Shown here in pieces: positions 23,646 through 38,271 of a stretch of 61,591 nucleotides of DNA. The first letter of the stretch is position 1, and each line of letters begins with the position of its first letter. A program made the position numbers and the translations under genes. The notes beneath the pieces are model-generated. The model worked only from the letters and a program-made list of their open reading frames with translations, made no database searches and was not told the DNA's origin. The stretch lies in contig CAJBRY010000657.1 of assembly GCA_903958085.1 (NCBI GenBank), positions 1-61,591 on the forward strand, written 5' to 3'. Origin of the DNA: an uncultured Geobacteraceae bacterium (GTDB lineage Bacteria; Desulfobacterota; Desulfuromonadia; Geobacterales; Pseudopelobacteraceae).

Positions 23646-23698
23646 ATAATCCTCTCATGCTATAAATGCATCTAAAATATCCTGTGGCAGAAGGTTTA

Positions 23699-24619
23699 TT
23701 AGCCGTTGAAAAGAGAAAATATCCGACCAAAACGCTTCTTCAAACTACCAGCCATCTTTTCACTGAAAGAGAGCTTCAACGAGCGAAAATATTTCTTGAG
23801 GGCAGAGAGGGCAATCGTATCCTCTTCGACAGCGATTTTAGTTACAATAATTGGCTTATCACTTAGTTCGATATTAAAATGATCAATCGCAGCACAATTT
23901 ACTCCGCTTGCATCATATCCTATATTTTGTACCAATGACTTCCCTGGATACAATGTAAGGCTATTCGTCAAAAATGCTGAAGCATGCCAACGAACCGCCC
24001 ATGAATTGTTTTCGCCACGGGTTTGACGCTTCAGCATTTTGGTATATGAATAAGCACCATCAAGATCAAAAGAGCGCTCAAGATGTTTTTCTTTCAAACT
24101 TTGTAATAGCTGGCTACCATCCGGTTCAAAAAGTTTCCATCCACGCTTCCACGTTGCCCAGCCCCAGCAATCGGCGCCACGAAGAAAAAAAGTTTCCGGT
24201 AATTCTTCTTTAACAGGGTAAACATACCCATGAATGGAAATCACCCGCTCTTCATCGGCATAATAGTTGAGAGCATTATTCATATAGCTGAGAAAATGGG
24301 GAGAGGTTACTAAATCATCTTCAAGAACAATTACACGGCCAAACTCTGCAACAAGATCAGAGACCCCAGAGATGATTGAGCGTGAGAGGCCATAATTTTC
24401 TGACCGCTCAATAATTGTAACTGTGCAAAATCCATCCAAATTTTTAATAAAATCCCGCACATCACAAACACCCTTGTTAGCCTTATCATCTCGAGGAGCA
24501 TCAGAAAAAATAAAAAGGGCACTTTCAGCAGCCAGTTCATTGTTTGCAAGAGCATGAATAGTTTTGCGAGTGTGTTCAGGGCGATTGTAAGTAAATAAAG
24601 CTATGGGAGCTAGTGGCAT
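23699..24619 (-). CDS. GT-A fold glycosyltransferase (GT2-like)
   Basis: IALFTYNRPEHT start and VLEDDL acidic motif. 306 aa. Confidence 0.55.
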   Translation of the reverse strand: MPLAPIALFTYNRPEHTRKTIHALANNELAAESALFIFSDAPRDDKANKGVCDVRDFIKNLDGFCTVTIIERSENYGLSRSIISGVSDLVAEFGRVIVLEDDLVTSPHFLSYMNNALNYYADEERVISIHGYVYPVKEELPETFFLRGADCWGWATWKRGWKLFEPDGSQLLQSLKEKHLERSFDLDGAYSYTKMLKRQTRGENNSWAVRWHASAFLTNSLTLYPGKSLVQNIGYDASGVNCAAIDHFNIELSDKPIIVTKIAVEEDTIALSALKKYFRSLKLSFSEKMAGSLKKRFGRIFSLFNG

Positions 24620-24629
24620 AGGTTTTAGT

Positions 24630-25322
24630 TCATAACGTCAACATAGTTTTAAAAAACATGGTTCTTTGTGTCCTGCATAATAGTTCGTAATTCTGCTGTT
24701 TCATAAAGTTTGCAGTTTCAGAATTCAAAGAGCCCGCAAGATTTGTGCTCTTAATATCTTCTACCAGTACGTAAGTAGGCCGGTACTTAGACCAGTTATT
24801 CGAAATAAGCACTTTATAATCCATGCCCTCAACATCAATGGACATAAAATCAATGTTATTTCCAGGCAAGTACATATCAAGAATCTCGCTTAGTGGCATT
24901 GTTGTCATTTTTATTTCAGAAACAATATTGAAGCTGGTATTAGTATCCCTGTCTTTGCTCAGATCGCTGCTAAACCCGTTCAATGCAGGTTCATCAAACA
25001 TAAAGTATGTTAATTCCTGCTTAGTGTCTGATACCGCAATTTCAAGATTGATGTCATTGGGCCGGTAAAGATTGAAGAGATCCATCGCATGAGGCCTTGC
25101 CTCAATATTAATGCCTTTCCATCCTTTTAGATAAAAATGGTATGTGTTTGAAAACTTCATAGGATGATAAGCTCCTACGTCCACGTATGTCCCGTTTTTC
25201 TTGCCATGCAAAAGTTCTGCAAGCACCATGTCCTCTCCTTCCTGAGAAAAGGAGAGTCTGGAATATTTATTTGTATACTTCGTTTTTTTGAGTTTAAGGA
25301 GAATTTTCTCTGGAAAATTCAT
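24630..25322 (-). CDS. FkbM-family methyltransferase
   Basis: GTYVDVGAYHP and FMSIDVEGMDYKVL blocks are typical of FkbM-type sugar O-methyltransferases. Confidence 0.7.
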   Translation of the reverse strand: MNFPEKILLKLKKTKYTNKYSRLSFSQEGEDMVLAELLHGKKNGTYVDVGAYHPMKFSNTYHFYLKGWKGINIEARPHAMDLFNLYRPNDINLEIAVSDTKQELTYFMFDEPALNGFSSDLSKDRDTNTSFNIVSEIKMTTMPLSEILDMYLPGNNIDFMSIDVEGMDYKVLISNNWSKYRPTYVLVEDIKSTNLAGSLNSETANFMKQQNYELLCRTQRTMFFKTMLTL

Positions 25323-25352: not shown

Positions 25353-27113
25353 TTATTTTGAGTTAGCAAAATTTAGCAATTTACATGCAAGAGCATTCGA
25401 TTTAGCCTCTGCTTCAGGATCAGAATACAATCCACAGAGTAGTCTATGTACCTCGTGTTTTAGTCCAATTGTCTCTTCCTCTTCCGATACGAAAGGGTAT
25501 TGTATTTCAATATCCAGAATGGAATGCAATTGATCATGAATAATTTTATTAACATTAGTGGCTGCCATAAGTCTTTGAGATCTGTTCTTGCAGTCACTCA
25601 TTTGTTGTCGGCATGGTTTTAAAAAAGTTAATAGTTTGTTGAATTTTCTTGAGAAAAAAGGCAGCCTTTGTTGCAAATCATTCTTTGCAAAACTTTCTCC
25701 GATATCCAACAGAGAATAGTCATATTCCATTGCACACCATCTGTAGGTCATTCGAATTCTTTCAGAATCCCATCCCGCTTGCAACGCTTCCTCTAATTTA
25801 AGGAAATATTCTTTTTCAGTAGTTCCAACATAGTTCAGTTCGGACGGGTAGAAAACCAGTTCGCTTGAATATAGCACAACCGGTATTCCCAATAACGCCA
25901 TTTCTTTGCCAGATGATGACCATGCATTCAGAAAAACATCAGTGATGCTCGCCAGATCATAAAGCGAAATATTGTCAGTTGGCCAGTTCACCCGCACATT
26001 CTGGGGTGTTTTGGAGAATACTTCCTGTAAAACCTTGGCATGTTCAGACAGCATGTTTTCCCGTTTGTTGGGAAATTCGCGAGGATGAACCCGGATCAGC
26101 AATGCAAGGTCGTTTCTGTCTGCTACATATTCGATAAGAGCCTTGACCCAGTCCACCTGTTTTGTGAACATCAGGTTTTCAACTCTGGTGAGCACCCCTA
26201 CAGTTTCTGCCGCAAAGCGTTCATCATAACTACTAAGAGTAGCACAAATTACTTTCTGGACGGAATCAATACCAAAAAATGATTTCAAATCAGAGCTGCT
26301 GCCTTTTGCCGCCACAGAATATGCCCAAGCGCTCCTGCCTTTGAAAACCTCAAGGAAATGGTCTGTTACCGCTTTTAAGGCCACGTGAGGGCATGGATGT
26401 TCTTTGAACTCCTTCCATTTTTCCAACATATGCCTGTAAAATTCAACGGTATTATGCTTGGCCAGGATCAAGGTTTGAATCCTCTTCGACAGATTGCCCC
26501 CAGCATGCAGGAAATATTGAGGGACTCCATGCAATCCTGCTAGTCTGCAAAACACTCGGTTTACAGCATATAATGCGTTATAAACAACCAGGCGGTCAGG
26601 GTGTATTTGATTGAACATTCGCTGGGCAATGTGAAAAACTAGAAGAGCGTTTTTTAGGCTAGATTTGTAACGTTCCCATTCAGATGGTGAGAAATCCAGG
26701 TTGCTTTTTTTGGAATCAAGCAATATTTCATAAAGGGCAATTTTACCAACCTCAACTGAGTTAAGCGTCAGTTCCAAACAATTTTCAGGCGTAACCGATG
26801 TAATTATTTCTTCTATAGAGTTCAAATCAGCCGCCTGATATTTATCGGACAAATCAAAACCGGCAAAGCCAAATTGTTCGCAGATAATCTCTTTGTTCTT
26901 TTTACATAAACGGCAAATGCGTTGTTTTTTTTCTCTGTCTGCAGCAAAAGGTATGTCATGCGCACTCATGGAAATACAGTAATCATCCAACAAGCCGCCA
27001 CACCCGATATAGACGATTTCATGTCCCTGCTGCATCAATGCTTCAGCTATTAACGCTTCAGGAAAAGCGTGACCCCAAATGGCTGAGTTTGGTGCAAAAA
27101 ATAATATTTTCAT
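25353..27113 (-). CDS. Uncharacterised 586-aa GT-B-like protein with a KpsS/KpsC-type HP motif; candidate ulosonic/nonulosonic-acid transferase
   Basis: MKILFFAPNS... GT-B-like N-terminus. LIRVHPRE (HP motif) is followed by NAWSSSGKEMALLGIPVV, resembling the capsule_synth C-terminal domain. Directly downstream of pseI. Confidence 0.4.
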   Translation of the reverse strand: MKILFFAPNSAIWGHAFPEALIAEALMQQGHEIVYIGCGGLLDDYCISMSAHDIPFAADREKKQRICRLCKKNKEIICEQFGFAGFDLSDKYQAADLNSIEEIITSVTPENCLELTLNSVEVGKIALYEILLDSKKSNLDFSPSEWERYKSSLKNALLVFHIAQRMFNQIHPDRLVVYNALYAVNRVFCRLAGLHGVPQYFLHAGGNLSKRIQTLILAKHNTVEFYRHMLEKWKEFKEHPCPHVALKAVTDHFLEVFKGRSAWAYSVAAKGSSSDLKSFFGIDSVQKVICATLSSYDERFAAETVGVLTRVENLMFTKQVDWVKALIEYVADRNDLALLIRVHPREFPNKRENMLSEHAKVLQEVFSKTPQNVRVNWPTDNISLYDLASITDVFLNAWSSSGKEMALLGIPVVLYSSELVFYPSELNYVGTTEKEYFLKLEEALQAGWDSERIRMTYRWCAMEYDYSLLDIGESFAKNDLQQRLPFFSRKFNKLLTFLKPCRQQMSDCKNRSQRLMAATNVNKIIHDQLHSILDIEIQYPFVSEEEETIGLKHEVHRLLCGLYSDPEAEAKSNALACKLLNFANSK

Positions 27114-27156: not shown

Positions 27157-28206
27157 TCATGAAATAAGATTCCAACTAAGCGGCGTACCCTTAGACACGT
27201 CTTTTGAAACTTTCTTGCCGACTACAATGTCAAAATATTTTGGCGGCAAACCCAACCCAGGGCGTATTGCACGAAGGTTAGCCGTAGAAAAGAATTCACC
27301 AGCCCGCATATGTTCCGCCACATATAGCGAACGACGATATTGAAGGGACTTTTTTTCTGTTTCTGTCGGCCCATAACTGACACATCCCAACGCCTGCCAT
27401 GCCCGCTTTGTTTCAACTACCAGGCTCTGCATCTCGTCGGGTTCGAGGGAGAATACTGAATCAACACCACCGTCAGCCCTGTTAAGGGTAAAATGCTTTT
27501 CAATGACCGTTGCGCCCAGAGCCACTGCCGTGACAGCCGCCCCCACGCCCATGGTGTGGTCTGACAGTCCGACTCCAACATTAAAGAGCTCATGCAGGTG
27601 CGGTATGGTACGCAAATTGGAAGATTCTGGGGTGGCGGGGTAGCTGCTGGTGCATTTGAGCAGAACTATCTCGCGGCACCCTGCCTCCCGGGCTGCCCTT
27701 ACCGCCTCGTCCAGTTCGGCAACTGTGGCCATGCCGGTGGAGATGATCATCGGCTTGCCCGTTCTAGCTACTTTGCGCAGCAGCGGCAGATCGATATTCT
27801 CGAATGAGGCGATCTTGTAGCAGGGGACCTGCAATGATTCGAGAAAATCCACTGAGGTCGCGTCAAAGGGGGTACTGAAAAAGATAATTCCCAGCTCCTG
27901 GCACCGCTCCATAATAGGTTTGTGCCATTCCCACGGCGTATGCGCCTCCTGATAAAGCTCGTAAAGGCTTCTGCCGGTCCATAGATTTCCGGGATCACTG
28001 ACGAAAAACTCCCGTTCCCGCAGATCAAGCGTCATGGTGTCAGCAGTATAGGTCTGGATCTTCATGGCATCGACGCCGCACCTGGCCGCTGCTTCCACAA
28101 TCTCCAGTGCCCTTTCCAGAGACTGATTGTGATTGCCGGACATCTCCGCAATGATAAATGGCGGCTCAGCAGGGCCGATCAGCCTGCCGGCGATGTTAAT
28201 GGTCAT
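27157..28206 (-). CDS. pseI: Pseudaminic acid synthase (NeuB family)
   Basis: FIIAEMSGNHNQSLERALEIVEAAARCGVDAMKIQTY and a C-terminal SAF domain. Start set at ATG 28206 (MTINIAG). Confidence 0.85.
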   Translation of the reverse strand: MTINIAGRLIGPAEPPFIIAEMSGNHNQSLERALEIVEAAARCGVDAMKIQTYTADTMTLDLREREFFVSDPGNLWTGRSLYELYQEAHTPWEWHKPIMERCQELGIIFFSTPFDATSVDFLESLQVPCYKIASFENIDLPLLRKVARTGKPMIISTGMATVAELDEAVRAAREAGCREIVLLKCTSSYPATPESSNLRTIPHLHELFNVGVGLSDHTMGVGAAVTAVALGATVIEKHFTLNRADGGVDSVFSLEPDEMQSLVVETKRAWQALGCVSYGPTETEKKSLQYRRSLYVAEHMRAGEFFSTANLRAIRPGLGLPPKYFDIVVGKKVSKDVSKGTPLSWNLIS

Positions 28207-28229
28207 ATGGCCTCCTTGCCGGAAATGGT

Positions 28230-28979
28230 TCACGTCGTTGCAGCATGCTGGACCATCTCGTCCCACGATAACCAGTGCTCTGTGCCGCTGGCGATAAGTT
28301 CCAGCGTTTTCTCCGGACCTATATTCACTAGCGCGTCAATTATCGAAAGATAGGGAATAAATTCCTGGGGAGAGCCGATCTGCGCATATGTTTTCGGAAC
28401 ATAATTCTGAAAGCGGACCTCAATATCCTGAACAGGAAAGACAGCGTCCTCAAGCATATAGGGAAAAGAGCCGCGGGCGCAGACATAGGTTTTTGCCCCG
28501 CTCCAGCGCAACAGGTCGAGAACCCGCTGTGAGCGCTCTGTCTGCAAGGGGCATTGCGAACTATAGCAGAATTCCCGTTTGATCCCCAACAAACGGCAGG
28601 CCAAAAGAATAAAGTCTGTATTCTGGCTAGCCAGCGATGCGGCTTGCGCGAAAAACCACTGGTTGAGGTCAGGAGCTAATTCCGCGAAAAACGGAGCCTT
28701 GCTGTAATTCTGCTCCAGCCTTTTCCATAGTTTGGTGCGCCACGGGGTCGATTCATTGATTTCAGTTTGATTAAGAGCTGCCTTGAATGAATTTGACTTG
28801 CGAACCGGCACGCTGTACCAGTCGACCTGGCCGCGGTTGACAAAAAGGCGATTTCGCTGGTGGTAGCTTTGCACTGAAAACTGAAAGTCATCGAGAACAA
28901 TAAAACGATCCGACCGGTAGATCAGTTCAAAAAAACCCTGCCAGGGCAAAAAGGCCGGCTGCATCATGGCGACGACCAT
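28230..28979 (-). CDS. WbqC-family protein (function unknown)
   Basis: The MQPAFLPWQGFFELI start is the hallmark of the WbqC-like family found in O-antigen loci. Confidence 0.7.
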   Translation of the reverse strand: MVVAMMQPAFLPWQGFFELIYRSDRFIVLDDFQFSVQSYHQRNRLFVNRGQVDWYSVPVRKSNSFKAALNQTEINESTPWRTKLWKRLEQNYSKAPFFAELAPDLNQWFFAQAASLASQNTDFILLACRLLGIKREFCYSSQCPLQTERSQRVLDLLRWSGAKTYVCARGSFPYMLEDAVFPVQDIEVRFQNYVPKTYAQIGSPQEFIPYLSIIDALVNIGPEKTLELIASGTEHWLSWDEMVQHAATT

Positions 28980-28982
28980 ATT

Positions 28983-29480
28983 CTATGACCTCGTCAATTC
29001 CATGCCGATAATGTTGCAGCCACGGCCGGCCCAGACGCCGGCATCGCCGACAAGCGGCACTTCGACAAAGCCGATGTTTTGGTACATGGCATAAGCAGCC
29101 TTGTTAAAATCGGCAACATGCAGGTACATTTTATGGAAATGCATGTTTTCCATCCCCTCCTGCACCAGCAGTTTCGTCGCGCGAGTCCCGACCCCTTTGC
29201 CGCGAGTCGCCGGAGATCCCATATAAATCCACAATTCGCCTTCACTGCCGGCAATGATATTTTTGATGCCACAGTTGCCGACATGCTCGTTCTCGCAATA
29301 AATAGCGTAAACCTTTTGCGAAGAATCCGACAATAGCCTGGTGCAGTAGGTGACATGTCCTTCCCAGTCAGGTTCTCCCCGCATGAGAAACATGCGCCGC
29401 AGTTCAGGGTCGCAGATCCAGGCAAAGGTTTGCTGAAAATGGTCCTGCGAGAAGGCTACTAGTTGGATGTCATAATCCAT
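28983..29480 (-). CDS. GNAT N-acetyltransferase (PseH candidate)
   Basis: 165 aa. The RGKGVG acetyl-CoA loop and the FAWICDPELRRMF N-terminus are PseH-like. Confidence 0.6.
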   Translation of the reverse strand: MDYDIQLVAFSQDHFQQTFAWICDPELRRMFLMRGEPDWEGHVTYCTRLLSDSSQKVYAIYCENEHVGNCGIKNIIAGSEGELWIYMGSPATRGKGVGTRATKLLVQEGMENMHFHKMYLHVADFNKAAYAMYQNIGFVEVPLVGDAGVWAGRGCNIIGMELTRS

Positions 29481-29488
29481 GATACCGC

Positions 29489-30556
29489 CTAGATGTCATA
29501 GTCTGTGCATGTCGTACAGAATTCAACCTCGGCCATGCGCCCTTCGCTGTTGAGCCGGAGGATCTCATGTCTGGCGCTGCCGTTCCAGATCTCATGCAGC
29601 GTCTGTTTCTGGACGTCACCCAGGAACAGTTCGCCGTTATAGGAGGCATCGCACAAGGTGACATGCCCATTCGAACAAATAAAGCAATCATTGCGCGAAA
29701 CCCGCAGACATGTGGTCAGCGGCTTTCTTTCCCGCTGGCCAAGCCCGAAGCTGTTGTTGGGCAGGTTTACATACTCAAGCATATTGATGCTGACAATATC
29801 CGCATACCGGTAATGTTCGGCAATAAATGCATCAACCTCGTGTTGGGTGGTTTCCTGCTCGATCATCTGGCAATGGAGAAAGGGTTTCCTTGGGAGATTT
29901 TCCTGGCCTTTCAGTTTGTAAAAGGTGTCCAGGTTATCTCGGACGGCTTTGAAATCGCCTTCAGGGATAACCGTGTTGTAGGTGGCAGCGGTAACCGCAT
30001 GCATGGAAAAATTTATGTAATCGATATTTGAATCAAGCACGCAGTGAATATTGTCTTCCGTGAAATACTGGCCGTTGGTGCTCATCCAGATGACGCCGAG
30101 ATTTTTCTTCTGGCTGATGTGCCGGATGTTTTCTCTGAACTCTGGATGCAGCAGGGATTCGCCAAGATGGTAGAGCCATATGCCCTCAATGCCGTAGGAA
30201 TCGATCTCGTCAATAACTTTCCGGTAAAGTGAACCTTCCATATCCATGCGTGGCCGCTTCAGGTTGTTTTGCGGACACATCCGGCATAGATAATTGCACT
30301 TGCTGGTCATTTCGAACAAGATCCTTCTGGGGAAGGAGATGCGTTCAAGGTACCGTGAAGATGGGGGCATTCTCCTGATCGGTACGACAACCACATTGCG
30401 TGAGGCGAGTTCCTGTGCATAAGCAAGATTGTCAGGATCTTCAACCAGCTTCAACTCCTGGGTCATCTGCACCGGCTTCATTTTCCTCAGTTCGCTGAAC
30501 TTGGGGATCGCCGGTGCTTCTATCTGGTAATATCGTGATAAATCGAAAAATTCCAT
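29489..30556 (-). CDS. Radical SAM enzyme with C-terminal SPASM/twitch-like Cys-rich domain
   Basis: CNYLCRMC (Cx3Cx2C). C-terminal CLRVSRNDCFICSNGHVTLC...FCTTCTDYD. Confidence 0.8.
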   Translation of the reverse strand: MEFFDLSRYYQIEAPAIPKFSELRKMKPVQMTQELKLVEDPDNLAYAQELASRNVVVVPIRRMPPSSRYLERISFPRRILFEMTSKCNYLCRMCPQNNLKRPRMDMEGSLYRKVIDEIDSYGIEGIWLYHLGESLLHPEFRENIRHISQKKNLGVIWMSTNGQYFTEDNIHCVLDSNIDYINFSMHAVTAATYNTVIPEGDFKAVRDNLDTFYKLKGQENLPRKPFLHCQMIEQETTQHEVDAFIAEHYRYADIVSINMLEYVNLPNNSFGLGQRERKPLTTCLRVSRNDCFICSNGHVTLCDASYNGELFLGDVQKQTLHEIWNGSARHEILRLNSEGRMAEVEFCTTCTDYDI

Positions 30557-30585
30557 TTAGTAACTCCTTCTAAATCTCTTGGAGA

Positions 30586-31473
30586 TCAGGCCGAACGGGT
30601 TGTTGCATAGACAATCACCTGCCGGCCAAGATCCAGTTCCGCCAACGCCTGGTAAAACTTGACCAGTTTCTCTTTTTTGCCATGCTTGCGCATCAGGTAT
30701 TCAAATTTCACCCGTTTGTTATGGCACGCTTTGCCCAACTCCCCATTGCCGACATACACATCAGCCATGAGCAAGAACATCTCCAGCGGGAAGGAGGCTT
30801 CACTATGAAATACAGAATAGCCGCAATCAGCAAGCAGTTTTTTGACAGAAGTCGCGCTGAAATAATTGATATGGTTTGGCGGGCAGACCCACCACTGGTT
30901 AAGGCCATACTCCTTGTCTGCAATGGCCTGAAAATCATTGAATTCATTGGGTACGTCTATGATCAGCAACCCGTCCGGTTTCAGTAGTTTGGCCTTGATA
31001 TTCTGCAATGTCGCGGCTGGATCCCGCAGATGCTCCAGCACATTGATCAAGGTAACCACATCAAAGCGTTTGTCTCCAACGCAATCAAAATCCTCGATAC
31101 CGGCATTGTGCACATCCAGACCCTTGGAGCGGGCGTACTCAACCGCTTCCGGTGCAGGCTCAAGGCCGCTCACATCGAAGCCGCGCTCACGGAAATAGAG
31201 CAAGGCCTGGGCAAAGCCGAAACCGATATCGAAAAGCGACAGTGACGAATGCCCGAAATGTTCAACGCATTTGCGGTAGATGCTTTCCCATCTGTCCGTA
31301 AAGTAATCTTCTTCCTCTTCCTGCACCTTCAGGGAAGAATCATTGAAATTCTTGTAGTCGGATGAATAGAACTCCTGCTTGTAGAATTCCTCGACCTCCT
31401 GTTGGGTAGGTACCGGGTCGGCCCTGAGGAATCCATGTTCCGGATCACTGATTATCTTGAATTTATCTGCCAT
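30586..31473 (-). CDS. Class I SAM-dependent methyltransferase
   Basis: LFDIGFGFAQ motif I, VVTLINVLEHL and LKPDGLLIIDVPN. Confidence 0.75.
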   Translation of the reverse strand: MADKFKIISDPEHGFLRADPVPTQQEVEEFYKQEFYSSDYKNFNDSSLKVQEEEEDYFTDRWESIYRKCVEHFGHSSLSLFDIGFGFAQALLYFRERGFDVSGLEPAPEAVEYARSKGLDVHNAGIEDFDCVGDKRFDVVTLINVLEHLRDPAATLQNIKAKLLKPDGLLIIDVPNEFNDFQAIADKEYGLNQWWVCPPNHINYFSATSVKKLLADCGYSVFHSEASFPLEMFLLMADVYVGNGELGKACHNKRVKFEYLMRKHGKKEKLVKFYQALAELDLGRQVIVYATTRSA

Positions 31474-31475
31474 CG

Positions 31476-32549
31476 TTATCCCCTTGGTGATTTATGGATA
31501 TTATCAGCGCAGCGTGCGACGCCGTTGCCGTCAACCAGCATCATTGCCTTGACGGATTGCTGTTTTAGCTGCTCCGGCCCCACCATGCATTCTTCCAGGG
31601 CCCGGGCAATCTGCTCAGACGTTATGGCATCTGCTTCACCCAGATAGGTCAGCGCGCCAATGCGGTGCAGGTCTCTGGTCGCTGCTATCTGGCTCGGCGA
31701 AGTTGTCATGACCAGGGAGGGGAGGCCAAGGCAGGAGCGCTCCCAGGTGGTTGTGCCTGGCGCCCCCACATACAGGTCACTGGCCGCTATCAGTTCCGCC
31801 ATGTTGTTGACCTGAATATGTAGGTCAACTTTCTCCATGTTCGAGGCCTCTGTTTTCAGCTTCTCCTGATGGGGATTATGCAAGCCCACGACAACGTCGA
31901 AAAAGAGTTCTGGATGTTTCAAATGGCCTATGGCCTGCAACACTTTGACGGTGGCATTACCGAGGTCGCTGCCGCCGAAGAAGACCAGGACGCGTCTGAC
32001 ACAGCCGTCCCGATGCCGCAGTTTTTTTCGCGCTGCGGCAAATTCATCACGCAAAAGCGCATAGGCAGGGCCTAACAGCATCTGGCATGTCGAAGGCACC
32101 AAACCAGGATAACGGTTGTCGCTGTCAGTGTAATAATTCTGGTCCAGCAGCACATCACAGTCATGGCGGCGATCGGCAAGATCGTCAATAACGAATATGT
32201 TTCGGGCAACAGGCCGCAGCGCTGATTCCCATGCATAATCCAGACGGTAATGGTCAAGCACAAGCCAGTCGATACCACCGGATTCATGCAGGTTCGTCAG
32301 ACACTGTCCGGCATCATTCTGCCAGTCTGCTTCTGGCTCCCCTACAAGACGGATGCGCACCACCGGATAACCCTTGTTTTCAACAAGGTTAATCAGGTTG
32401 CCGGGAACATCCCTGCAGAGAAAGCTTACCTGCGCCCCCCGACTTTTTAGCTCCTCGGCCAGTGTCAGGCAGCGCATGACATGCCCGCTGCCTATGCTCA
32501 GTGAGGCGTCAGCGCGGAAGCCAACGCGTATGCCTTTCAGGCGGTTCAC
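31476..32549 (-). CDS. pseG: UDP-2,4-diacetamido-2,4,6-trideoxy-beta-L-altropyranose hydrolase
   Basis: FRADASLSIGSGHVMRCLTLAEEL is the typical PseG N-terminus. GT-B-like, 357 aa. Confidence 0.8.
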   Translation of the reverse strand: MNRLKGIRVGFRADASLSIGSGHVMRCLTLAEELKSRGAQVSFLCRDVPGNLINLVENKGYPVVRIRLVGEPEADWQNDAGQCLTNLHESGGIDWLVLDHYRLDYAWESALRPVARNIFVIDDLADRRHDCDVLLDQNYYTDSDNRYPGLVPSTCQMLLGPAYALLRDEFAAARKKLRHRDGCVRRVLVFFGGSDLGNATVKVLQAIGHLKHPELFFDVVVGLHNPHQEKLKTEASNMEKVDLHIQVNNMAELIAASDLYVGAPGTTTWERSCLGLPSLVMTTSPSQIAATRDLHRIGALTYLGEADAITSEQIARALEECMVGPEQLKQQSVKAMMLVDGNGVARCADNIHKSPRG

Positions 32550-33835
32550 CGTACCTTGAAGAGAGGTTCTAGCGGCTTGCAGCGCAGATAATCCGCCATC
32601 TTCCTGTTGTCAACAGCGTCTTTCAGAATGGGCAGAACCTCATTGTACGCGTTGAGCAGCTTGGTGACGTCGTCGTCGGAATGGGCATAGTTCATGTTGT
32701 GCGAGCCCAGTGTCATAATGCCTCGGGCAAGCATCTCCTGCATGAACAAGGTCTTCAGCTCCCATACCGAATAAGGGTCGCAATCTTTCAGGATCATAAA
32801 CGACCAGACTGGGAGGCCTGCCAGATAGGCAAAATGACCGGCGTAATGCTGCTCGAGCAGTCCCGCCAAACCATCCAGCACTTTTTTCCCCTGTTTGCCG
32901 ATGGAGGCGATGACAGGTTCCCGCTGCAACTTGGTCATGGTTGCCAGCGATGCGGCCAGTGAGAGGGTTTCACCGCCAAAGGTGAAGGAGAAGAACACCT
33001 CTTCCATCAAGCGCATGATCTCCGCCTTGCCGGCCACTGCAGACAACGGATAGCCATTGGCAAGCCCCTTGCCGAAGGTGGCAAGATCGGGGGTGACTCC
33101 AAAATATTCCTGAGCGCCGCCGTTGGCGAAGCGGAAGCCTGTCACTGTTTCGTCAAAGATAAGTACGGCGCCGTTGCGGTGCGCTACATCCTGCACCTTG
33201 GAGAGGAAACCGTCGGCCGGTTCGGTAATGTTCATCGGCTCTAGGATAACCGCGGCGATCTGATCCCGATATTCCTTGAAAAGAGCGATGAGCGAATCAA
33301 TGTCATTATAGGTAAAGGTATGAGTTAGATCGCTGGTAGCCTTAGGGACGCCAAGATTGCGCGCGGTGGTGCCGATAAACCAGTCCTGCCAGCCATGATA
33401 GCCGCAGGCGGCCACCCGGTCACGGCCGGTGTAGGCCCGCGCAATCCTGACCGCACCGGCGGTGGCATCGGAACCATTCTTGCCGAAACGGACCTTCTCG
33501 GCACAGGGCACCATTTCCACTATCTTCTCAGCCACTTGTACCTCCAGGGTGTGCGGCAGCGAGAAGATTACCCCCTCCTCAAGCTGGGCCTTTACGGCGG
33601 CATTGACGTCAGGATCGCAATAGCCAAGGGTGATGGCAGCCAGCGAGTTGATAAAATCAATATATTCATTGCCGTCAATATCCCATACATGGCTTCCTTT
33701 GCCGCGGGCTATGAAATATGGCGATACCCCATACGGAAACTGCACCTTGCTTTTGCTGAAGGTTTGAGAACCGAGCGGGATCGTCTGCAGAGCCCGTTCC
33801 AGCATTTCTTCAGAGTTGTGATAGCGTTGCGACAT
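32546..33835 (-). CDS. Class III aminotransferase (glutamate-1-semialdehyde aminomutase-like)
   Basis: GKNGSDATAGAVRIAR and IFDETVTGFR..., with PLP Lys context ATFGKGLANG. 429 aa. Confidence 0.8.
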   Translation of the reverse strand: MSQRYHNSEEMLERALQTIPLGSQTFSKSKVQFPYGVSPYFIARGKGSHVWDIDGNEYIDFINSLAAITLGYCDPDVNAAVKAQLEEGVIFSLPHTLEVQVAEKIVEMVPCAEKVRFGKNGSDATAGAVRIARAYTGRDRVAACGYHGWQDWFIGTTARNLGVPKATSDLTHTFTYNDIDSLIALFKEYRDQIAAVILEPMNITEPADGFLSKVQDVAHRNGAVLIFDETVTGFRFANGGAQEYFGVTPDLATFGKGLANGYPLSAVAGKAEIMRLMEEVFFSFTFGGETLSLAASLATMTKLQREPVIASIGKQGKKVLDGLAGLLEQHYAGHFAYLAGLPVWSFMILKDCDPYSVWELKTLFMQEMLARGIMTLGSHNMNYAHSDDDVTKLLNAYNEVLPILKDAVDNRKMADYLRCKPLEPLFKVR

Positions 33836-33839
33836 GGCT

Positions 33840-34616
33840 TTATCCTTTGTGTGTAAGATTTGGCGGGATGCAATCCATCAATAATGATTTTTGCAGACCC
33901 TCATTACGGCTGAAATGGGTATTGAATGTTATGAAGTCCGGATGCTCCTTTAACCAGCAGAGGATATCGGCGGTTGTGAAGCATGGGTTGGCCGGATACA
34001 ACTCCTCGTAGATCCTGGTGATGAGCTCGAAATCAGCAGGCTCGTCAACCGTCCAGCGCAGTTCAGACAGATCATGTTCGCCTTTAAAGCTTCCCAGTTT
34101 GAAGAGGTCTGGCTGCTGGTGGATGAAAAGGGTCACGTGCTCCCGCTGGGAAGTGAGCTTTGCCTCAAGCCAGGCTTGTCCCAGACACTTGAAGCGAAAG
34201 ATCTCCACATCGAGGCCATCGGGGAAAGTCGGCTCAAGGGCGCTGCTGGTATAATCAAAGTTGCCGGCCAGATGATGTGCCACTACCTGGTCAATCAAGT
34301 CCGGGTCGGCCAGCGGACAGTCTCCGGTCAGGCGTACCACATGCTCGGGCTGATAGGACTTTGCTGCTTGGTAGAATCGCTCAAGCACATCATTGAGGCT
34401 ACCCCGAAAACAGGGAATACCCTTATCAAGACAAACCGACTCAATGGGGGTGTCACTTGCGTCACTGCTGGTAGCAACCAGCAGCTTGTCCAGGGATGTC
34501 GCGCGTTTCACTCTTTCGAGCTGCCGGAACAGCATCGGTTCACCAAGAATATTTTTCAATACCTTGCCCGGTAATCGCGATGAAGAAACCCGGGCCTGCA
34601 GGATGGCCAGGATCAT
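33840..34616 (-). CDS. SpsF-type cytidylyltransferase-family protein (possible CMP-sugar synthetase)
   Basis: MILAILQARVSSSRLPGKVLK start at ATG 34616, in ATGA overlap with the upstream GNAT stop. The 38-aa track extension is discarded. Confidence 0.7.
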   Translation of the reverse strand: MILAILQARVSSSRLPGKVLKNILGEPMLFRQLERVKRATSLDKLLVATSSDASDTPIESVCLDKGIPCFRGSLNDVLERFYQAAKSYQPEHVVRLTGDCPLADPDLIDQVVAHHLAGNFDYTSSALEPTFPDGLDVEIFRFKCLGQAWLEAKLTSQREHVTLFIHQQPDLFKLGSFKGEHDLSELRWTVDEPADFELITRIYEELYPANPCFTTADILCWLKEHPDFITFNTHFSRNEGLQKSLLMDCIPPNLTHKG

Positions 34617-35170
34617 TTTTTCACTCCTTGCCAATAGTCCTGGGCAGTGATGCCAAGAAGGACGGCATCGTACAGCACACCATTGCTCATGCCATGGGAG
34701 CGCAGGAGCCCCTCCTGCAGATATCCACATTTTTCAAAAGCTTTCATGCTTCCCAAATTAGTAGCATGGCAACCGGCTTTGATTTTGTTGAGATTCAACA
34801 TGTGAAAAGCATAGTCGGTGACCACCTGAATCGCTTCAGTGGCCAGGCCTTTTCCCCAGTAATTCTTGTCGCCGATAAAGAGGCTGATGTCAGCGTTGCG
34901 GTGGTGCCAGTTAATGGGGCCAAGCTTGATATTGCCGATATGCAGATCGTTTTCTTTTAAACAGATTGCCATAAAAGGTTCATTTTCCTTGGCATCCATC
35001 CGCTTCACAAAGTCAGCGATATTGTCGAGCGAACGGGGCACAAAACGCGTTTCCAGGAACTGGTAGATCTCCGGGTCATTGAGCCAGGAATAATAACGCT
35101 CGTTGACATCGCTCAGACGTACTTCGCGCAGGTAGATTCGTTCGCTGGAAAGATAATAGACATTGTTCAT
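34613..35170 (-). CDS. GNAT N-acetyltransferase (RimJ/RimL-like)
   Basis: YWGKGLATEA acetyl-CoA loop. 185 aa. Confidence 0.7.
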   Translation of the reverse strand: MNNVYYLSSERIYLREVRLSDVNERYYSWLNDPEIYQFLETRFVPRSLDNIADFVKRMDAKENEPFMAICLKENDLHIGNIKLGPINWHHRNADISLFIGDKNYWGKGLATEAIQVVTDYAFHMLNLNKIKAGCHATNLGSMKAFEKCGYLQEGLLRSHGMSNGVLYDAVLLGITAQDYWQGVKK

Positions 35171-35201
35171 ATCAATCTCCTGATATTTGTTAGTTTAACT
35201 G

Positions 35202-36089
35202 TTATTGCAACTTCCAGAGGGCCGGATTCACAAGCCCTTCATCAGCGCAGGCAAAGCGCTCATAACTGATGGTGTTGGCCGGAAGCGCAGTTGCTGCAGC
35301 AACAATTTGCTGCAGTTCACTGCCGGAACAGACGCCGACAATAACGTGGTCGATCTCCACGATGTCCATGACAAATTTCAATGTGGCCTGAAGCTGGGAA
35401 AACCCTTTGTTCCGGGCTTCACGGGAGAATGACTCCAGAATGCCAACGTAAGGAGCGAAGTATGGATTAAGGGCTGCTGCATCCATCAAAAGCAGGCCCT
35501 GTAAAAAGGCCGAACGGCTGTGGATTTCAACTCCCGCCTGCTTGAGCCGCTTCAGTTGGCCGCCGTTTAGTAACCGCTGGTCAAGAACATTGACCGGCAC
35601 CTGCACCAGATCCGGGGTGAAACGATGAAGTATTGCATCAAGCTGCTGCCCGGTGTAGGCGGAGAATCCCCATTTGCTGATCAGCCCCTGTTGTTTGAGT
35701 GCACAGACTCTCTCAACCAGCACCGATGACTCATCCGTCAGCAAATCATCGGCATGATGGAACATCAGGCCATGAATCGCCTCTTTTTGCAGGGACTTGA
35801 GGGAATGGAGAAATGTCTGCTCCAACCGGTCTGCCTCGGCTTTCAAATCGCCGGTAACATCAAAGCGCGGAGTTTTCGTCACAATGGCAAAATCATGCCC
35901 CAGGGAGGCAAGAGCCTGTCCGAGCACGGTTTCACTGGTGCCATACATGGAGGCGGTGTCGATGACGCTGATTCCGATGCGGGCAGCCAGATCCAGGATG
36001 TGCAGCACTTCATCAGCCGGTGTTCTGCCGGCTGTATTTGATATGCCGTAGTCCAGGCCGAACTGGACGGTGCCGAGGCCGAGTTTCAC
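35202..36089 (-). CDS. Aldo/keto reductase
   Basis: LGLGTVQFGLDYG...IDTASMYGTSE is a typical AKR N-terminus. 4-nt overlap with the pseC stop. Confidence 0.8.
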   Translation of the reverse strand: MKLGLGTVQFGLDYGISNTAGRTPADEVLHILDLAARIGISVIDTASMYGTSETVLGQALASLGHDFAIVTKTPRFDVTGDLKAEADRLEQTFLHSLKSLQKEAIHGLMFHHADDLLTDESSVLVERVCALKQQGLISKWGFSAYTGQQLDAILHRFTPDLVQVPVNVLDQRLLNGGQLKRLKQAGVEIHSRSAFLQGLLLMDAAALNPYFAPYVGILESFSREARNKGFSQLQATLKFVMDIVEIDHVIVGVCSGSELQQIVAAATALPANTISYERFACADEGLVNPALWKLQ

Positions 36090-37249
36090 TGCAGCACCCT
36101 TAACAGGGTATCAATCACATAATCTTGTTGCTCTTCAGTCAGGCCAAAATAGAGCGGCAGGCTGATGGCCTCCTGGTAATATTGCTCAGCCTGTGGGTAA
36201 TCCCCAGCCCTGAAGCCAAGCTGCTGGTAGTACGGATGGGTATGCACCGGGATATAGTGCAGGTTGACGCCTATATTTGCCTGGCGCAATTCTTCAAAAA
36301 CCTGGCGTCTGGACTTGATAATCAGTTCAAGATTGAGCCGGATGACGTAGAGGTGGTAGGCGGAATAACAGTCCGGATGCTGGTAGGGCAGGGTGAGCGG
36401 CAAAGGCGCCAAGAACCGGTCATATCGTTTTGCCAGCAGATGGCGACGCGTGACGAATTCATCCAGACGTGACATCTGGCTCACTCCGAGGATGGCCTGC
36501 ATATCGGTCATGCGGTAGTTGAAGCCCAGCGCAATCTGCTGATAATACCAGGGGCCGTCGCTTTCTCCGGCCATCAGCGCCGGGTCGCGGGTAATGCCGT
36601 GTGAACGAAGACGAACCAGCGTATCATATAGTTCTTTTTTGTTGGTCAGCACCATTCCGCCTTCACCAGTAGTGATAATCTTCACGGGATGAAAACTGAA
36701 AATAGTCATGTCAGAGAAGGCGCAGGCGCCGATTTTATGGTTGCCATAACGGCCGCCAATGGCGTGTGAGGCATCTTCAATTACCGTTACATTGTATTTG
36801 GCGGCGCATGCGGCGATTTCCGGCATCCTGCAGGACTGGCCAGCAAAATGAACCGGCACTACCACATCCGGGAGTTTGCCGGATGCTGCGGCTATTTGCA
36901 GTTTTCGGGAAAATTCAATGGTGCTCAGGTTGTATGTTTTTGGATCGATGTCAACAAAGTCAACCTCGGCACCGCAGTAAAGTCCGCAATTGGCCGAGGC
37001 AACAAAGGTGTTCGGCGATGTCCAGAGACGCTTGCCTGGGGCAAGTCCGGCTGCCAAGCAGGCGATGTGCAGGGCCGAAGTCGCGCTGTTTACCGCCACT
37101 GCATACTTGGCGCCGCAGTAATCAGCAACAGTGCTCTCGAACAATTCTATAGCGGGGCCTTGAGTCAGCCAATCGGAAGCCAAAACATCAACCACTGCCT
37201 GAATGTCTTTCTCAGAAATATTCTGCCGACCATAGGGGATAGCTTTCAT
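36086..37249 (-). CDS. pseC: UDP-4-amino-4,6-dideoxy-N-acetyl-beta-L-altrosamine transaminase
   Basis: MKAIPYGRQNISEKDI start is typical of PseC. DegT-family body with FSFHPVKIITTGEGG (PLP Lys). Confidence 0.85.
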   Translation of the reverse strand: MKAIPYGRQNISEKDIQAVVDVLASDWLTQGPAIELFESTVADYCGAKYAVAVNSATSALHIACLAAGLAPGKRLWTSPNTFVASANCGLYCGAEVDFVDIDPKTYNLSTIEFSRKLQIAAASGKLPDVVVPVHFAGQSCRMPEIAACAAKYNVTVIEDASHAIGGRYGNHKIGACAFSDMTIFSFHPVKIITTGEGGMVLTNKKELYDTLVRLRSHGITRDPALMAGESDGPWYYQQIALGFNYRMTDMQAILGVSQMSRLDEFVTRRHLLAKRYDRFLAPLPLTLPYQHPDCYSAYHLYVIRLNLELIIKSRRQVFEELRQANIGVNLHYIPVHTHPYYQQLGFRAGDYPQAEQYYQEAISLPLYFGLTEEQQDYVIDTLLRVLQ

Positions 37250-37254
37250 CTTGC

Positions 37255-38271
37255 TTAAGCCTCTACGTAAAAGTCTGGGTCAACATGCTCAGAAATCAAT
37301 GTCCTAATTTGCTCCACACTTAACCATTCGGAATTGCTGCCGCTGTTGTAGTTAAATCCCTGAGTGCAGCGTTTGCCTTTAAAAGCCTCGATAAAATCGT
37401 CAATATTCCAGAGCGGAATTGAGGGAAGAATGACGAAGTACTTCTCAAATTCAAGCGTATTAATGGAGTCTGTTGTGGTAATCATCTCTTCATGGAGTTT
37501 TTCACCAGGGCGAATACCAACGATGTTCTTTTGACATTTTGGTCCAATTGCATCAGCAATGTCGGTAATTCGATAGCTTGGAATTTTAGGGACAAAAATT
37601 TCGCCGCCCCACATGTTTTCAAGTGCGTATAGTACGAGCTCAACACCATCTTGAAGAGTTATATTAAATCTGGTCATCTGCTCGTCGGTAATTGGCAATA
37701 GACCTTCCTGTCGTTTTTCAAGGAAGAAAGGAATTACACTACCCCTACTTCCCATGACATTTCCATATCTCACGACTGAAAATTTGATGTCGCGCTTCCC
37801 TTTATAATTATTTGCAGCAACAAAAAGCTTGTCCGAACAGAGTTTTGTAGCCCCATACAGGTTTATTGGTGCTGCTGCCTTATCCGTGCTCAAGGCAACC
37901 ACCTTTTTTATCCCTTTGTCAATTGCGGACTCAATGACATTTTGAGCACCAATAATGTTGGTTTTTATGGCCTCAAACGGATTATATTCACATGCTGGAA
38001 CTTGCTTCAACGCAGCAGCATGAATAACGATGTCAATCCCCTCCAATGCCCGCATAAGACGCTCTTTGTCACGGACATCCCCAATGAAAAACCGGACTTT
38101 ACGTTCAGAACCTTCTGGCATGCATTGCGCCATTTCATATTGCTTCAACTCATCACGCGAATATACAACTAATCTCTCAATTTCAGGATACGTCTCCAGT
38201 ATAGTCGTAACAAACTTTTTCCCGAATGATCCGGTCCCGCCAGTAATAAGAATAGATTTATAATTTAACAT
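37255..38271 (-). CDS. pseB: UDP-N-acetylglucosamine 4,6-dehydratase (inverting)
   Basis: ILITGGTGSFGKKF, YGATK (YxxxK), 338 aa, immediately upstream of pseC. Confidence 0.88.
   Translation of the reverse strand: MLNYKSILITGGTGSFGKKFVTTILETYPEIERLVVYSRDELKQYEMAQCMPEGSERKVRFFIGDVRDKERLMRALEGIDIVIHAAALKQVPACEYNPFEAIKTNIIGAQNVIESAIDKGIKKVVALSTDKAAAPINLYGATKLCSDKLFVAANNYKGKRDIKFSVVRYGNVMGSRGSVIPFFLEKRQEGLLPITDEQMTRFNITLQDGVELVLYALENMWGGEIFVPKIPSYRITDIADAIGPKCQKNIVGIRPGEKLHEEMITTTDSINTLEFEKYFVILPSIPLWNIDDFIEAFKGKRCTQGFNYNSGSNSEWLSVEQIRTLISEHVDPDFYVEA

Follow-up and report, generated by a model that had tools for sequence, protein, structure and literature searches.

The closest described counterpart of the radical SAM enzyme analysed here is BtrN, the 2-deoxy-scyllo-inosamine dehydrogenase of butirosin biosynthesis (PDB codes 4M7T and 4M7S), which acts on a carbohydrate-like small molecule and not on a peptide. 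DesII, a deaminase/dehydrogenase (PDB code 8HZY), uses TDP-4-amino-4,6-dideoxyglucose, which is made by a DegT-type aminotransferase and is of the class of the PseC product; DesII is not known to have a BtrN-type Twitch cluster. GenK and other class B radical SAM methyltransferases of sugars combine radical SAM chemistry with methyl transfer on an amino sugar. We know of no characterised function for a further family, spiro-SPASM (TIGR04321, 510 positions). In Campylobacter, the accessory genes PseA/PtmG and PtmH decorate CMP-Pse and CMP-Leg (acetamidino addition, N-methylation) before transfer (PMC3766260; bioRxiv 10.64898/2026.04.20.719630), and the ptmG-homologous ORF 28 of Legionella encodes a pseA-like PP-loop adenine nucleotide alpha-hydrolase of 451 aa, not a WbqC protein (PMC3766260 and its supplement). 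CMP-activated ulosonic acids with a one-carbon-longer backbone were detected by mass spectrometry in Magnetospirillum gryphiswaldense, where their pathway is not known (bioRxiv 10.64898/2026.04.20.719630).

Similar to the PseA/PtmG/PtmH systems, the operon described here carries accessory genes inside a nonulosonic acid locus and involves a class I methyltransferase. Unlike them, it includes a radical SAM enzyme. No radical SAM step was found described for pseudaminic, legionaminic or nonulosonic acid synthesis in the literature searched, in line with the statement of a first-pass annotation of this locus that none is characterised for pseudaminic acid. Among the families and literature searched, neither a curated family nor a paper was found to cover the enzyme.

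Organization of the pseudaminic acid operon

The window, the whole stretch of 61,591 nucleotides that was analysed, contains a pseudaminic acid operon in which PseB, PseC, PseG and PseI all score above their NCBIfam equivalog cut-offs. The genes are listed in operon order, the last line giving the protein encoded beyond PseI.

37255..38271, minus strand: PseB, UDP-GlcNAc 4,6-dehydratase (inverting), first gene of the operon (TIGR03589, 536 bits, cut-off 408)
36086..37249, minus strand: PseC, aminotransferase making UDP-4-amino-4,6-dideoxy-beta-L-AltNAc (TIGR03588, 552 bits, cut-off 423.5)
35202..36089, minus strand: aldo/keto reductase, KidO-like, accessory, kept in most related loci (PF00248, E 1.3e-27)
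34613..35170, minus strand: GNAT-A, RimL/SpeG-like, variable accessory acyltransferase (PF13302, E 1.3e-27)
33840..34616, minus strand: SpsF-like cytidylyltransferase (PF02348, E 3.5e-32)
32546..33835, minus strand: class III aminotransferase, glutamate-1-semialdehyde aminomutase-like, accessory (PF00202, E 5.9e-55)
31476..32549, minus strand: PseG, UDP-sugar hydrolase (TIGR03590, 308 bits, cut-off 153.6)
30586..31473, minus strand: class I SAM-dependent methyltransferase, 295 aa (PF13489, Methyltransf_23, E 1e-22)
29489..30556, minus strand: radical SAM enzyme, 355 aa (PF04055, E 1.6e-9, and PF13186, E 3.7e-10, both above the gathering cut-off)
28983..29480, minus strand: GNAT-B, 165 aa (Acetyltransf_3, E 4.6e-13)
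28230..28979, minus strand: WbqC-family protein, 249 aa (PF08889, E 8e-60)
27157..28206, minus strand: PseI, pseudaminic acid synthase (TIGR03586, 506 bits, cut-off 340)
25353..27113, minus strand: 586-aa protein (weak BFO_1060 glycosyltransferase family match, 26 bits, cut-off 200)

The four-gene cassette first annotated between pseG and pseI, comprising the methyltransferase, radical SAM, GNAT-B and WbqC genes, was confirmed in coordinates and strand and is part of this longer operon. No intergenic gap in the operon exceeds 31 bp, and those around the cassette range from -37 to +29 bp, thus leaving no space for a precursor-peptide gene and bearing out the initial remark that no peptide-substrate gene lies nearby. 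Two starts were adjusted: the cytidylyltransferase likely begins at an internal Met at 34616 (the mechanical ORF extends to 34730) and PseI at a Met at 28206 (the mechanical ORF begins at 28266).

The SpsF-like protein is the sole window candidate for CMP-pseudaminic acid synthetase, no second cytidylyltransferase being found among the ~55 window ORFs scanned, and it probably fills the PseF role. Membership of the PseF family itself was rejected (23 bits, cut-off 205.7). The class III aminotransferase matches NF004856 below its cut-off (430 and 486 bits, respectively), and GNAT-A was seen in few related loci only (L012, weakly, L016, L017 and L018). The 586-aa protein is possibly a pseudaminic-acid transferase; a comparable weak BFO_1060-type match adjoins the radical SAM gene in L013.

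GNAT-B is probably an ordinary PseH-equivalent N-acetyltransferase and not an additional step, as suggested by its best NCBIfam match (PseH, TIGR03585, 52 bits, below the cut-off of 93.1), by a weak match to C. jejuni PseH (PDB code 4xpk; E 2.8e-5, spanning residues 12-138 of 165) and by its being kept next to the radical SAM gene in the majority of loci (14/19). The WbqC protein matches PF08889 almost throughout (202.8 bits, cut-off 21.3, positions 1-216 of 218), and its confident AF2 model (pLDDT 90) resembled no PDB structure at E<0.001. In the contexts examined its neighbour is always an N-acyltransferase or a DegT aminotransferase, and one protein (P0149) is a GNAT-WbqC fusion. Membership of the PseA/PtmG acetamidino synthases, which have a PP-loop fold, was rejected, since PF08889 is the sole Pfam match and no PDB fold match was significant.

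Architecture of the radical SAM enzyme

The enzyme belongs to the radical SAM superfamily (PF04055, 38.6 bits, cut-off 29.5) and displays a CX3CX2C motif at C87, C91 and C94, invariant in 20 homologues. Outside this motif, only C283, C302, C347 and C350 are invariant in the 20 aligned homologues, with the spacing C-x18-C-x44-C-x2-C, and the protein terminates five residues past the CX2C pair. For the last 81 residues the top PDB match is BtrN; the alignment spans its residues 169-238 and pairs four of four Cys, and the corresponding C169, C188, C232 and C235 are, we take it, the ligands of the BtrN auxiliary cluster. The C-terminal domain is a BtrN-type Twitch with one predicted auxiliary [4Fe-4S] site. 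Of the SPASM/twitch-like C-terminus originally proposed, the Twitch assignment stands and the full SPASM domain, which would comprise two auxiliary clusters and 7-8 Cys including CX2CX5CX3C, was rejected on account of the four invariant C-terminal Cys. The Pfam SPASM model matches the enzyme because a Twitch is a truncated SPASM.

BtrN was also the best whole-protein match, both in a sequence search of the PDB (E 1.8e-9) and in Foldseek (E 4e-13, TM 0.67-0.75 on BtrN length), at an identity of 15-18% in the Foldseek alignments. In both proteins a short Twitch domain follows the radical SAM core and ends just after CX2C, and the spacing of the auxiliary-cluster Cys matches between them. In contrast with BtrN, the present enzyme has an additional conserved, family-specific N-terminal domain of ~75 aa, in which no Pfam match and no recognised RRE family were found, is locked to a methyltransferase and is encoded within pseudaminic acid operons instead of aminoglycoside clusters. 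Orthology with BtrN as a DOIA dehydrogenase was rejected in view of the 15-18% identity, the pse neighbours and the lack of 2-deoxystreptamine pathway genes. The sugar-acting DesII and BlsE are also among the Foldseek matches, DesII differing in its larger size, lower fold score and pathway logic. Unlike class B enzymes of the GenK type, the enzyme has no B12-binding domain. It covers the last 276 positions of the spiro-SPASM model (57.7 bits, cut-off 250), and the SpsF-like cytidylyltransferase of the operon aligns to the N-terminal part of the same model; here, however, the two are separate genes.

Among NCBIfam models, 27 matched the enzyme and none reached its cut-off, which places it outside every curated family of unrelated function (best 95 against 380 bits), in keeping with the first-pass reading. 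The curated maturase families (W_rSAM_matur, PqqE, MftC, anSME-like, NirJ/AhbD and others) were rejected on these scores, and a RiPP-modifying enzyme was rejected given the gaps of at most 31 bp, the lack of an RRE-type Pfam match and the sugar-enzyme neighbours in the related loci. A peptide or cofactor maturase (of RiPP, sulfatase or tungsten-enzyme type) residing in a sugar operon by chance might be read from the top NCBIfam matches, W_rSAM_matur (95 bits) and rSAM_Geo_metal (64 bits), and from a Binatia homologue (L011) that lies outside any sugar locus and adjoins another SPASM-type radical SAM gene. Yet those scores fall far under the cut-offs (380-400 bits), the operon has neither space for a precursor gene nor a recognised RRE family, pse synteny extends across phyla in 20 of 22 loci, and a single auxiliary cluster site resembles the small-molecule enzyme BtrN; we regard a maturase as highly improbable.

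Distribution and cohesion of the methyltransferase-radical SAM pair

Related loci, 22 in number, were found in bacteria and archaea, and in 20 of them, one archaeal, the radical SAM enzyme lies within a pse-type gene set. The co-occurrence with pse genes that the first-pass annotation had proposed to check was observed in nearly every related locus having enough flank, L011 being an exception, and the cassette belongs to a conserved set of 11-12 genes rather than being a local oddity. Settings are of the LPS type and of flagellin glycosylation, the latter exemplified by the flagellin/Maf loci L019 and L024. The methyltransferase-radical SAM module recurs in more than ten phyla, and its hosts are overwhelmingly anaerobes, as fits an oxygen-sensitive enzyme. 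Gene order is shuffled in L012-L015 with the gene set retained; the position between pseG and pseI, originally read as a clue to the substrate, is not evidence for the order of reactions.

The methyltransferase and the radical SAM enzyme make up the truly cohesive unit and are obligate partners. The methyltransferase gene immediately precedes the radical SAM gene in 17/22 loci, searches seeded with the methyltransferase found an adjoining radical SAM gene in three of three cases, and the divergence of the two proteins is correlated (r=0.80, identity to the window copies), whereas in the same comparison PseI and PseB divergence showed no such correlation. The L007 radical SAM enzyme carries a fused domain of the TIGR04371 type, a 'putative sugar O-methyltransferase' (101 bits against a cut-off of 44). 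The methyltransferase carries a family-specific N-terminal extension of ~75 aa and showed no relation to known sugar C-methyltransferases among the NCBIfam profiles and others compared. Beyond this pair the four-gene cassette is looser, GNAT-WbqC-NeuB also occurring without the methyltransferase and radical SAM genes in L017 and L018. The aldo/keto reductase and class III aminotransferase are likewise present without the radical SAM enzyme in these two loci, and so cannot be assumed to consume its product.

Some more remote relatives, at 26-33% identity, are fused to an SpsF-like cytidylyltransferase (P0429 and P0489) or to a GT4 glycosyltransferase. In L024, the cytidylyltransferase is fused to a class III aminotransferase. 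A plasmid mini-cassette, L028, comprises a DegT aminotransferase, a Twitch radical SAM enzyme, a TylF-like O-methyltransferase and WbqC, with no NeuB-type/NulO synthase.

Proposed tailoring of pseudaminic acid and competing chemistries

With the earlier interpretation partly supported overall, we consider it very probable that the radical SAM enzyme and methyltransferase constitute a sugar-tailoring pair in the synthesis of a pseudaminic acid derivative. A horizontally mobile operon, including the four cassette genes, would make a decorated pseudaminic acid, destined for an LPS-type glycan in the present organism and for flagellin in others. PseB, PseC, GNAT-B (in the PseH role), PseG, PseI and the SpsF-like cytidylyltransferase would supply the standard route, the obligate pair would perform the tailoring, and WbqC may act with the N-acyltransferase upon an amino-sugar. 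SAM would be cleaved reductively and the 5'-deoxyadenosyl radical would remove hydrogen from one of the sugar carbons of a Pse intermediate, most likely at the UDP-linked 4-amino(acylamino)-4,6-dideoxy-L-AltNAc stage and less likely on CMP-Pse. The synthase-free L028 mini-cassette favours an amino-hexose substrate, as first suggested. Tailoring could instead occur at the CMP-sugar stage, to which the cytidylyltransferase fusions of remote relatives and the cytidylyltransferase-aminotransferase fusion of L024 might point.

By analogy with BtrN, the enzyme may convert a secondary alcohol into a ketone in a two-electron oxidation, passing the electron to the auxiliary cluster; such a route would be independent of oxygen and NAD and would suit anaerobes. 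This ketone, or the alcohol after re-reduction or epimerisation, would then pass to partner enzymes, and the methyltransferase would add a methyl group. This specific reaction is put forward tentatively, at somewhat below even likelihood. Against it stand the low identity to BtrN (15-18%) and the fact that a Twitch architecture does not fix the reaction, MoaA, SkfB and BlsE sharing it with other chemistry; a ketone-forming step, moreover, gives no reason for the tight methyltransferase coupling.

Epimerization, in which a hydrogen abstracted from a hexose or nonulosonate stereocentre would be returned to the opposite face and the hydroxyl of the stereoisomer then O-methylated, would accommodate the two non-orthologous partners that resemble sugar O-methyltransferases (TIGR04371 in the L007 fusion and the TylF-like protein of L028). 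Foldseek also matched the radical SAM epimerase EpeE, and the 8-epi, 4-epi and acinetaminic nonulosonic acid stereoisomers have unclear biosynthetic origins. However, EpeE scores far below BtrN (E ~5e-7 versus 4e-13), no non-cluster Cys is conserved as hydrogen donor (C229, C291 and C294 all vary), and a redox-neutral reaction needs no BtrN-like electron-accepting cluster, making an epimerase unlikely.

The broader proposal that the methyltransferase and Twitch enzyme remodel pseudaminic acid in its carbon skeleton or its stereochemistry, for example by C-methylation to a ten-carbon ulosonic acid, appears rather improbable; if true, it would be the first radical SAM-dependent nonulosonic acid step and would define a new sugar class across anaerobic bacteria and archaea. 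One such route would oxidize the C8 hydroxyl to a methyl ketone, methylate the enolate at C9 and re-reduce the product with the aldo/keto reductase, which is conserved within the gene set. The tight methyltransferase-radical SAM pairing and the one-carbon-extended CMP-ulosonic acids of Magnetospirillum gryphiswaldense (bioRxiv 10.64898/2026.04.20.719630) are consistent with it. No link between the radical SAM family and Magnetospirillum was found, however, and the methyltransferase showed no relation to the known sugar C-methyltransferases compared, its non-orthologous counterparts resembling O-methyltransferases. Several loci (L006, L009, L010, L014, L025 and L026) moreover possess a separate class B (B12-dependent) radical SAM gene, the usual methylator of unactivated carbon, and carbon addition has a low probability.

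Equally doubtful is a DesII-like lyase, which would eliminate the PseC-installed 4-amino group to give a 3-keto-4-deoxy sugar for the class III aminotransferase or aldo/keto reductase, followed by methylation, as in desosamine. PseC makes a 4-amino-4,6-dideoxyhexose, a sugar of the DesII substrate class; DesII is a fold match (E ~1e-9); the operon has a second aminotransferase plus a methyltransferase; and in L028 the DegT aminotransferase gene lies immediately 5' of the Twitch radical SAM gene, resembling desI-desII. Nevertheless, a BtrN-type auxiliary cluster is predicted here and presumably absent from DesII, and loss of N4 or amination at C3 would remove the N7 substituent or the ring-forming hydroxyl needed for a PseI-type product. 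The PseH-like GNAT-B, retained beside the radical SAM gene in 14/19 loci, argues that N4 is kept and acylated.

The probable sugar-tailoring pair points to an undescribed, oxygen-independent step in the making of pseudaminic acid.

The pse operon and its setting

Open reading frame, Pfam and NCBIfam evidence bore out the first-pass annotation of four closely packed minus-strand genes (the cassette) inserted between pseG and pseI. The genes and their flanks are organized as follows.

27157-28266, minus strand: PseI, flank of the cassette; passes the NCBIfam equivalog cut-off
28230-28979, minus strand: WbqC-family protein, 249 aa; PF08889, 203 bits (Pfam)
28983-29480, minus strand: GNAT (GNAT-B), 165 aa; Acetyltransf_3, E 4.6e-13 (Pfam)
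29489-30556, minus strand: radical SAM protein, 355 aa; PF04055 and PF13186, both above the gathering score (Pfam)
30586-31473, minus strand: class I SAM methyltransferase, 295 aa; Methyltransf_23, E 1e-22 (Pfam)
31476-32549, minus strand: PseG, flank of the cassette; passes the NCBIfam equivalog cut-off

Upstream of the cassette and PseG lie genes for a class III aminotransferase, an SpsF-like cytidylyltransferase, a second GNAT (GNAT-A), an aldo/keto reductase, PseC and PseB. Intergenic gaps across the operon range from -118 to +31 bp and thus leave no place for a hidden peptide gene, in agreement with the initial remark that the radical SAM gene has no peptide-substrate gene nearby. The block at 27157-38271 displays a G+C content of 51.3%, against 45.6% in the remaining window. 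PseC through PseI range from 48 to 56%, while the values of PseB (41.6%) and of the glycosyltransferase and methyltransferase genes downstream (37-41%) lie at or below the background. By its composition the pse block appears to have been gained by horizontal transfer, with its accessory-rich core as the imported part; a megablast search of the whole block against plasmids gave no match. An MntA/HepT-type nucleotidyltransferase toxin-antitoxin pair (38458-39218, minus strand) borders pseB on its upstream side, at the margin of the G+C-shifted block, a position that would fit a junction prone to mobility or recombination.

The block is surrounded by a lipid A/LPS region comprising LpxA, LpxB, LpxD, LpxK, WaaA, MsbA and heptosyltransferases; judging from these neighbours, the operon product in this organism is probably an LPS-linked sugar. 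Beyond the putative Pse transferase, a second amino-sugar set (19883-25322, minus strand) contains a DegT-type aminotransferase, an SDR dehydratase/epimerase, two methyltransferases (one FkbM-like) and two ORFs without a family match, which suggests that this glycan contains another modified sugar as well.

The top NCBIfam match of GNAT-B is PseH, below the cut-off, and residues 12-138 of its 165 align with C. jejuni PseH. GNAT-B is the GNAT conserved between loci (14 of 19), while GNAT-A is sporadic. These comparisons make PseH equivalence the best reading of GNAT-B.

Twitch architecture and relatives of the radical SAM enzyme

Alignment of 20 homologues (57-80% identity) revealed that the only invariant Cys residues of the radical SAM enzyme are C87, C91 and C94, which form the CX3CX2C motif, and C283, C302, C347 and C350; C291 and C294 are variable, and the protein ends five residues past C350. 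The last 81 residues match BtrN residues 169-238 end to end, with all four Cys paired to BtrN residues that we take to be its auxiliary-cluster ligands; this segment alone also has BtrN as its top PDB match. In a sequence comparison over the entire enzyme, BtrN is likewise the best PDB match (E 1.8e-9), and it is the best fold match of the enzyme's AF2 model (pLDDT 85; Foldseek E 4e-13, TM 0.67-0.75 on BtrN length), followed by SkfB, SuiB, DesII, anSME, BlsE and MoaA. Sequence and model together assign the C-terminal domain to Twitch, the short auxiliary-cluster type present in BtrN, and not to SPASM. A full SPASM domain is ruled out by Cys conservation, as only four C-terminal Cys are invariant. 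Of the "SPASM/twitch-like" C-terminus originally proposed, only the Twitch part was thus retained.

No NCBIfam model came near its cut-off with this enzyme (best 95 bits vs 380), and the protein belongs to no curated family of unrelated function. Only 58 clusters reached E<=1e-30 when 1.84 billion representatives were scanned exhaustively with HMMER; about 20 of them are full-length and include an N-terminal domain of about 70 aa, and approximately 3,600 remote relatives (26-33% identity) lack that domain. Among the remote relatives, P0429 and P0489 are fused to an SpsF-like cytidylyltransferase ("spiro-SPASM" architecture) and P0444 to a GT4 glycosyltransferase. These fusions tie the broader clade to glycan synthesis rather than to peptides, and the reading of the protein as an unrelated maturase is hardly credible. 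Remote homologues (~23% identity) were also found on Brachyspira hyodysenteriae plasmids of ~32-36 kb (H18-H25), with as many as four matches on a single plasmid; these plasmids carry polysaccharide genes.

The methyltransferase partner and the predicted reaction

A homologue scan of one genome per species identified 16 loci in 11 taxonomic groups, and six further contigs bring the total to 22. The groups include Rhodocyclaceae, the archaeon Methanoperedens, Nitrospirae, Dehalococcoidales, Omnitrophota, Syntrophaceae, Desulfobulbaceae/Desulfocapsaceae, Verrucomicrobia, Binatia and Elusimicrobia, with Desulfonema magnum 4be13 (L014) and Desulfovibrio sp. OH1186_COT-070 (L016) as isolates. The radical SAM gene lies within a pse-type set in 20 of the 22 loci (tblastn with the window proteins, plus called genes). 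Gene order is that of the window in roughly half of the loci, and in L012-L015 the genes are kept in shuffled order. In L019 (Acetobacterium) and L024 the set adjoins flagellin and Maf genes, so the same chemistry also serves flagellin glycosylation. The two exceptions, L007 and L011, first seemed to be synteny counter-examples. L011 (Binatia) is a true orphan radical SAM gene; L007 is a short contig (4.7 kb) that encodes the enzyme as a fusion with another kind of methyltransferase domain, which scores 101 bits against a cut-off of 44 for TIGR04371 "putative sugar O-methyltransferase". Co-occurrence with pse genes, a check proposed at the outset, holds for the radical SAM gene. An N-acyltransferase-WbqC-NeuB sub-unit also occurs without the methyltransferase-radical SAM pair in L017 and L018, with a hexapeptide-type acyltransferase and a formyltransferase, respectively.

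In 17 of the 22 loci the methyltransferase gene immediately precedes the radical SAM gene, and all three methyltransferase homologues picked as apparently outside the listed radical SAM contigs adjoin a radical SAM gene. Over 17 loci, identity to the window copies is correlated with that of the radical SAM enzyme for the methyltransferase (r=0.80) and WbqC (r=0.68), and uncorrelated for PseI (-0.02) and PseB (0.05). The module is compact, with two genes retaining 57-80% identity between phyla. Gene neighbourhood and covariation identify the methyltransferase as the predicted obligate partner of the radical SAM enzyme.

Other radical SAM genes accompany some loci. A B12-binding class B radical SAM protein of ~510 aa is present in L006 (6408-9097), L009, L014, L025 and L026, with a variant in L010, so that these pse clusters encode two different radical SAM enzymes. 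In L006, L009, L014 and L025 it adjoins an unannotated ~380-aa protein, whose L025 copy (369 aa) has a weak polysialyltransferase-family match and whose L006 copy has none (Pfam). In the distant locus L021, a second radical SAM/SPASM gene lies just upstream of the cytidylyltransferase (L021:5991-7007 and 11650-12783 cover this gene and an ATP-grasp gene).

The methyltransferase-radical SAM pair very probably tailors a Pse precursor. By analogy, the radical SAM reaction may be BtrN-like, a tentative proposal at somewhat below even odds: SAM would be cleaved reductively, a hydrogen would be taken from a carbinol carbon of the sugar, and an electron would pass to the auxiliary cluster to leave a ketone, after which the partner enzyme would methylate the processed product or a neighbouring group. 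That the enzyme is an epimerase is unlikely. A deamination of the type catalysed by DesII, which ranks after BtrN among the fold matches, is more doubtful still, and equally little weight is given to carbon addition yielding a C10 ulosonic acid, for which a speculative tie exists to unexplained Magnetospirillum C10 sugars (bioRxiv 10.64898/2026.04.20.719630).

Chemistry on an amino-hexose intermediate, as initially proposed, is favoured by a Solidesulfovibrio plasmid locus (L028) that encodes a DegT aminotransferase, a Twitch radical SAM protein, a TylF-like O-methyltransferase and WbqC without NeuB. Its radical SAM protein shares 24% identity with the window copy (pairwise E 2e-18) and the same Cys pattern. 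The presence of this trio on an amino-hexose pathway favours a substrate at the UDP-4-amino(acylamino)-4,6-dideoxy-L-AltNAc stage as the likelier prediction. Counting against the UDP stage are the cytidylyltransferase fusions (L024; P0429, P0489), which leave room for action on the CMP-sugar. In L024 (4783-6825), an SpsF-like cytidylyltransferase is fused to a class III aminotransferase (680 aa), suggesting that this aminotransferase works on or right beside the CMP-activation step.

The WbqC companion and the place of the gene set in nonulosonic acid synthesis

Neither the confident AF2 model of WbqC (pLDDT 90; no PDB fold at E<0.001) nor its sequence matched a PDB entry. P0149 is a WbqC-GNAT fusion, and in L021 the ATP-grasp protein occupies the slot held elsewhere by WbqC, which may hint at a ligase-like role. 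In isolates, WbqC lies beside DegT aminotransferases and acyltransferases in loci without a nonulosonate synthase (a Bacillus mycoides plasmid, with a FemAB-like acyltransferase; Rhizobium leguminosarum; Solidesulfovibrio carbinolicus). On the B. mycoides plasmid p479 (L022:8116-9690), a 293-aa FemAB-like acyltransferase, possibly aminoacyl-tRNA-dependent judging by its family name, is followed by WbqC and a PIG-L deacetylase; this locus lacks a nonulosonate synthase, so the role of WbqC is not confined to nonulosonic acids. The fusion and neighbour contexts indicate that WbqC probably acts with an N-acyltransferase on a nucleotide-linked amino sugar. The name wbqC probably goes back to the O121 O-antigen cluster of E. 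coli and its N-acetylglycyl-bearing sugar. A Bacillus wbqC gene had no blastn match in E. coli genomes, and the accessible part of the literature matching "WbqC" held nothing on an E. coli O-antigen cluster or WbqC function. Identity with the Campylobacter acetamidino synthase PtmG (Cj1324) was dropped, as ORF 28 of Legionella, named in the literature as homologous to ptmG, encodes a 451-aa PP-loop protein of the pseA type (PMC3766260). WbqC thus emerges as a widespread family without a solved structural relative, always partnered with amino-sugar N-acyltransferases or DegT aminotransferases.

The literature searched, spiro-SPASM included, described no radical SAM step in the synthesis of pseudaminic acid, legionaminic acid or any other nonulosonic acid, as the first-pass annotation had supposed for pseudaminic acid; the closest mention, made in passing, concerns an uncharacterised radical SAM gene (ORF 13-c) that some LPS loci of Legionella contain. 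What is new here is a discrete uncharacterised enzyme family, widely spread among anaerobes, that has an obligate methyltransferase partner and is accompanied by WbqC, a protein of orphan fold. Enzymes that tailor amino sugars by radical SAM chemistry (BtrN, DesII, GenK) and nonulosonate tailoring genes (PseA, PtmG, PtmH) were already known. The candidate substrates are known Pse-pathway compounds, which opens the proposed step to direct testing. Flagella, LPS, capsules and S-layers carry pseudaminic and related nonulosonic acids, which affect motility, immune recognition and phage susceptibility, and, to our knowledge, the characterised steps of their pathway all use NAD, PLP, acetyl-CoA, PEP, CTP or ordinary SAM chemistry. 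If confirmed in the pathway, a conserved radical SAM enzyme would add a new reaction type, and such a step would explain the oxygen-free diversification of nonulosonic acids in strict anaerobes and archaea.
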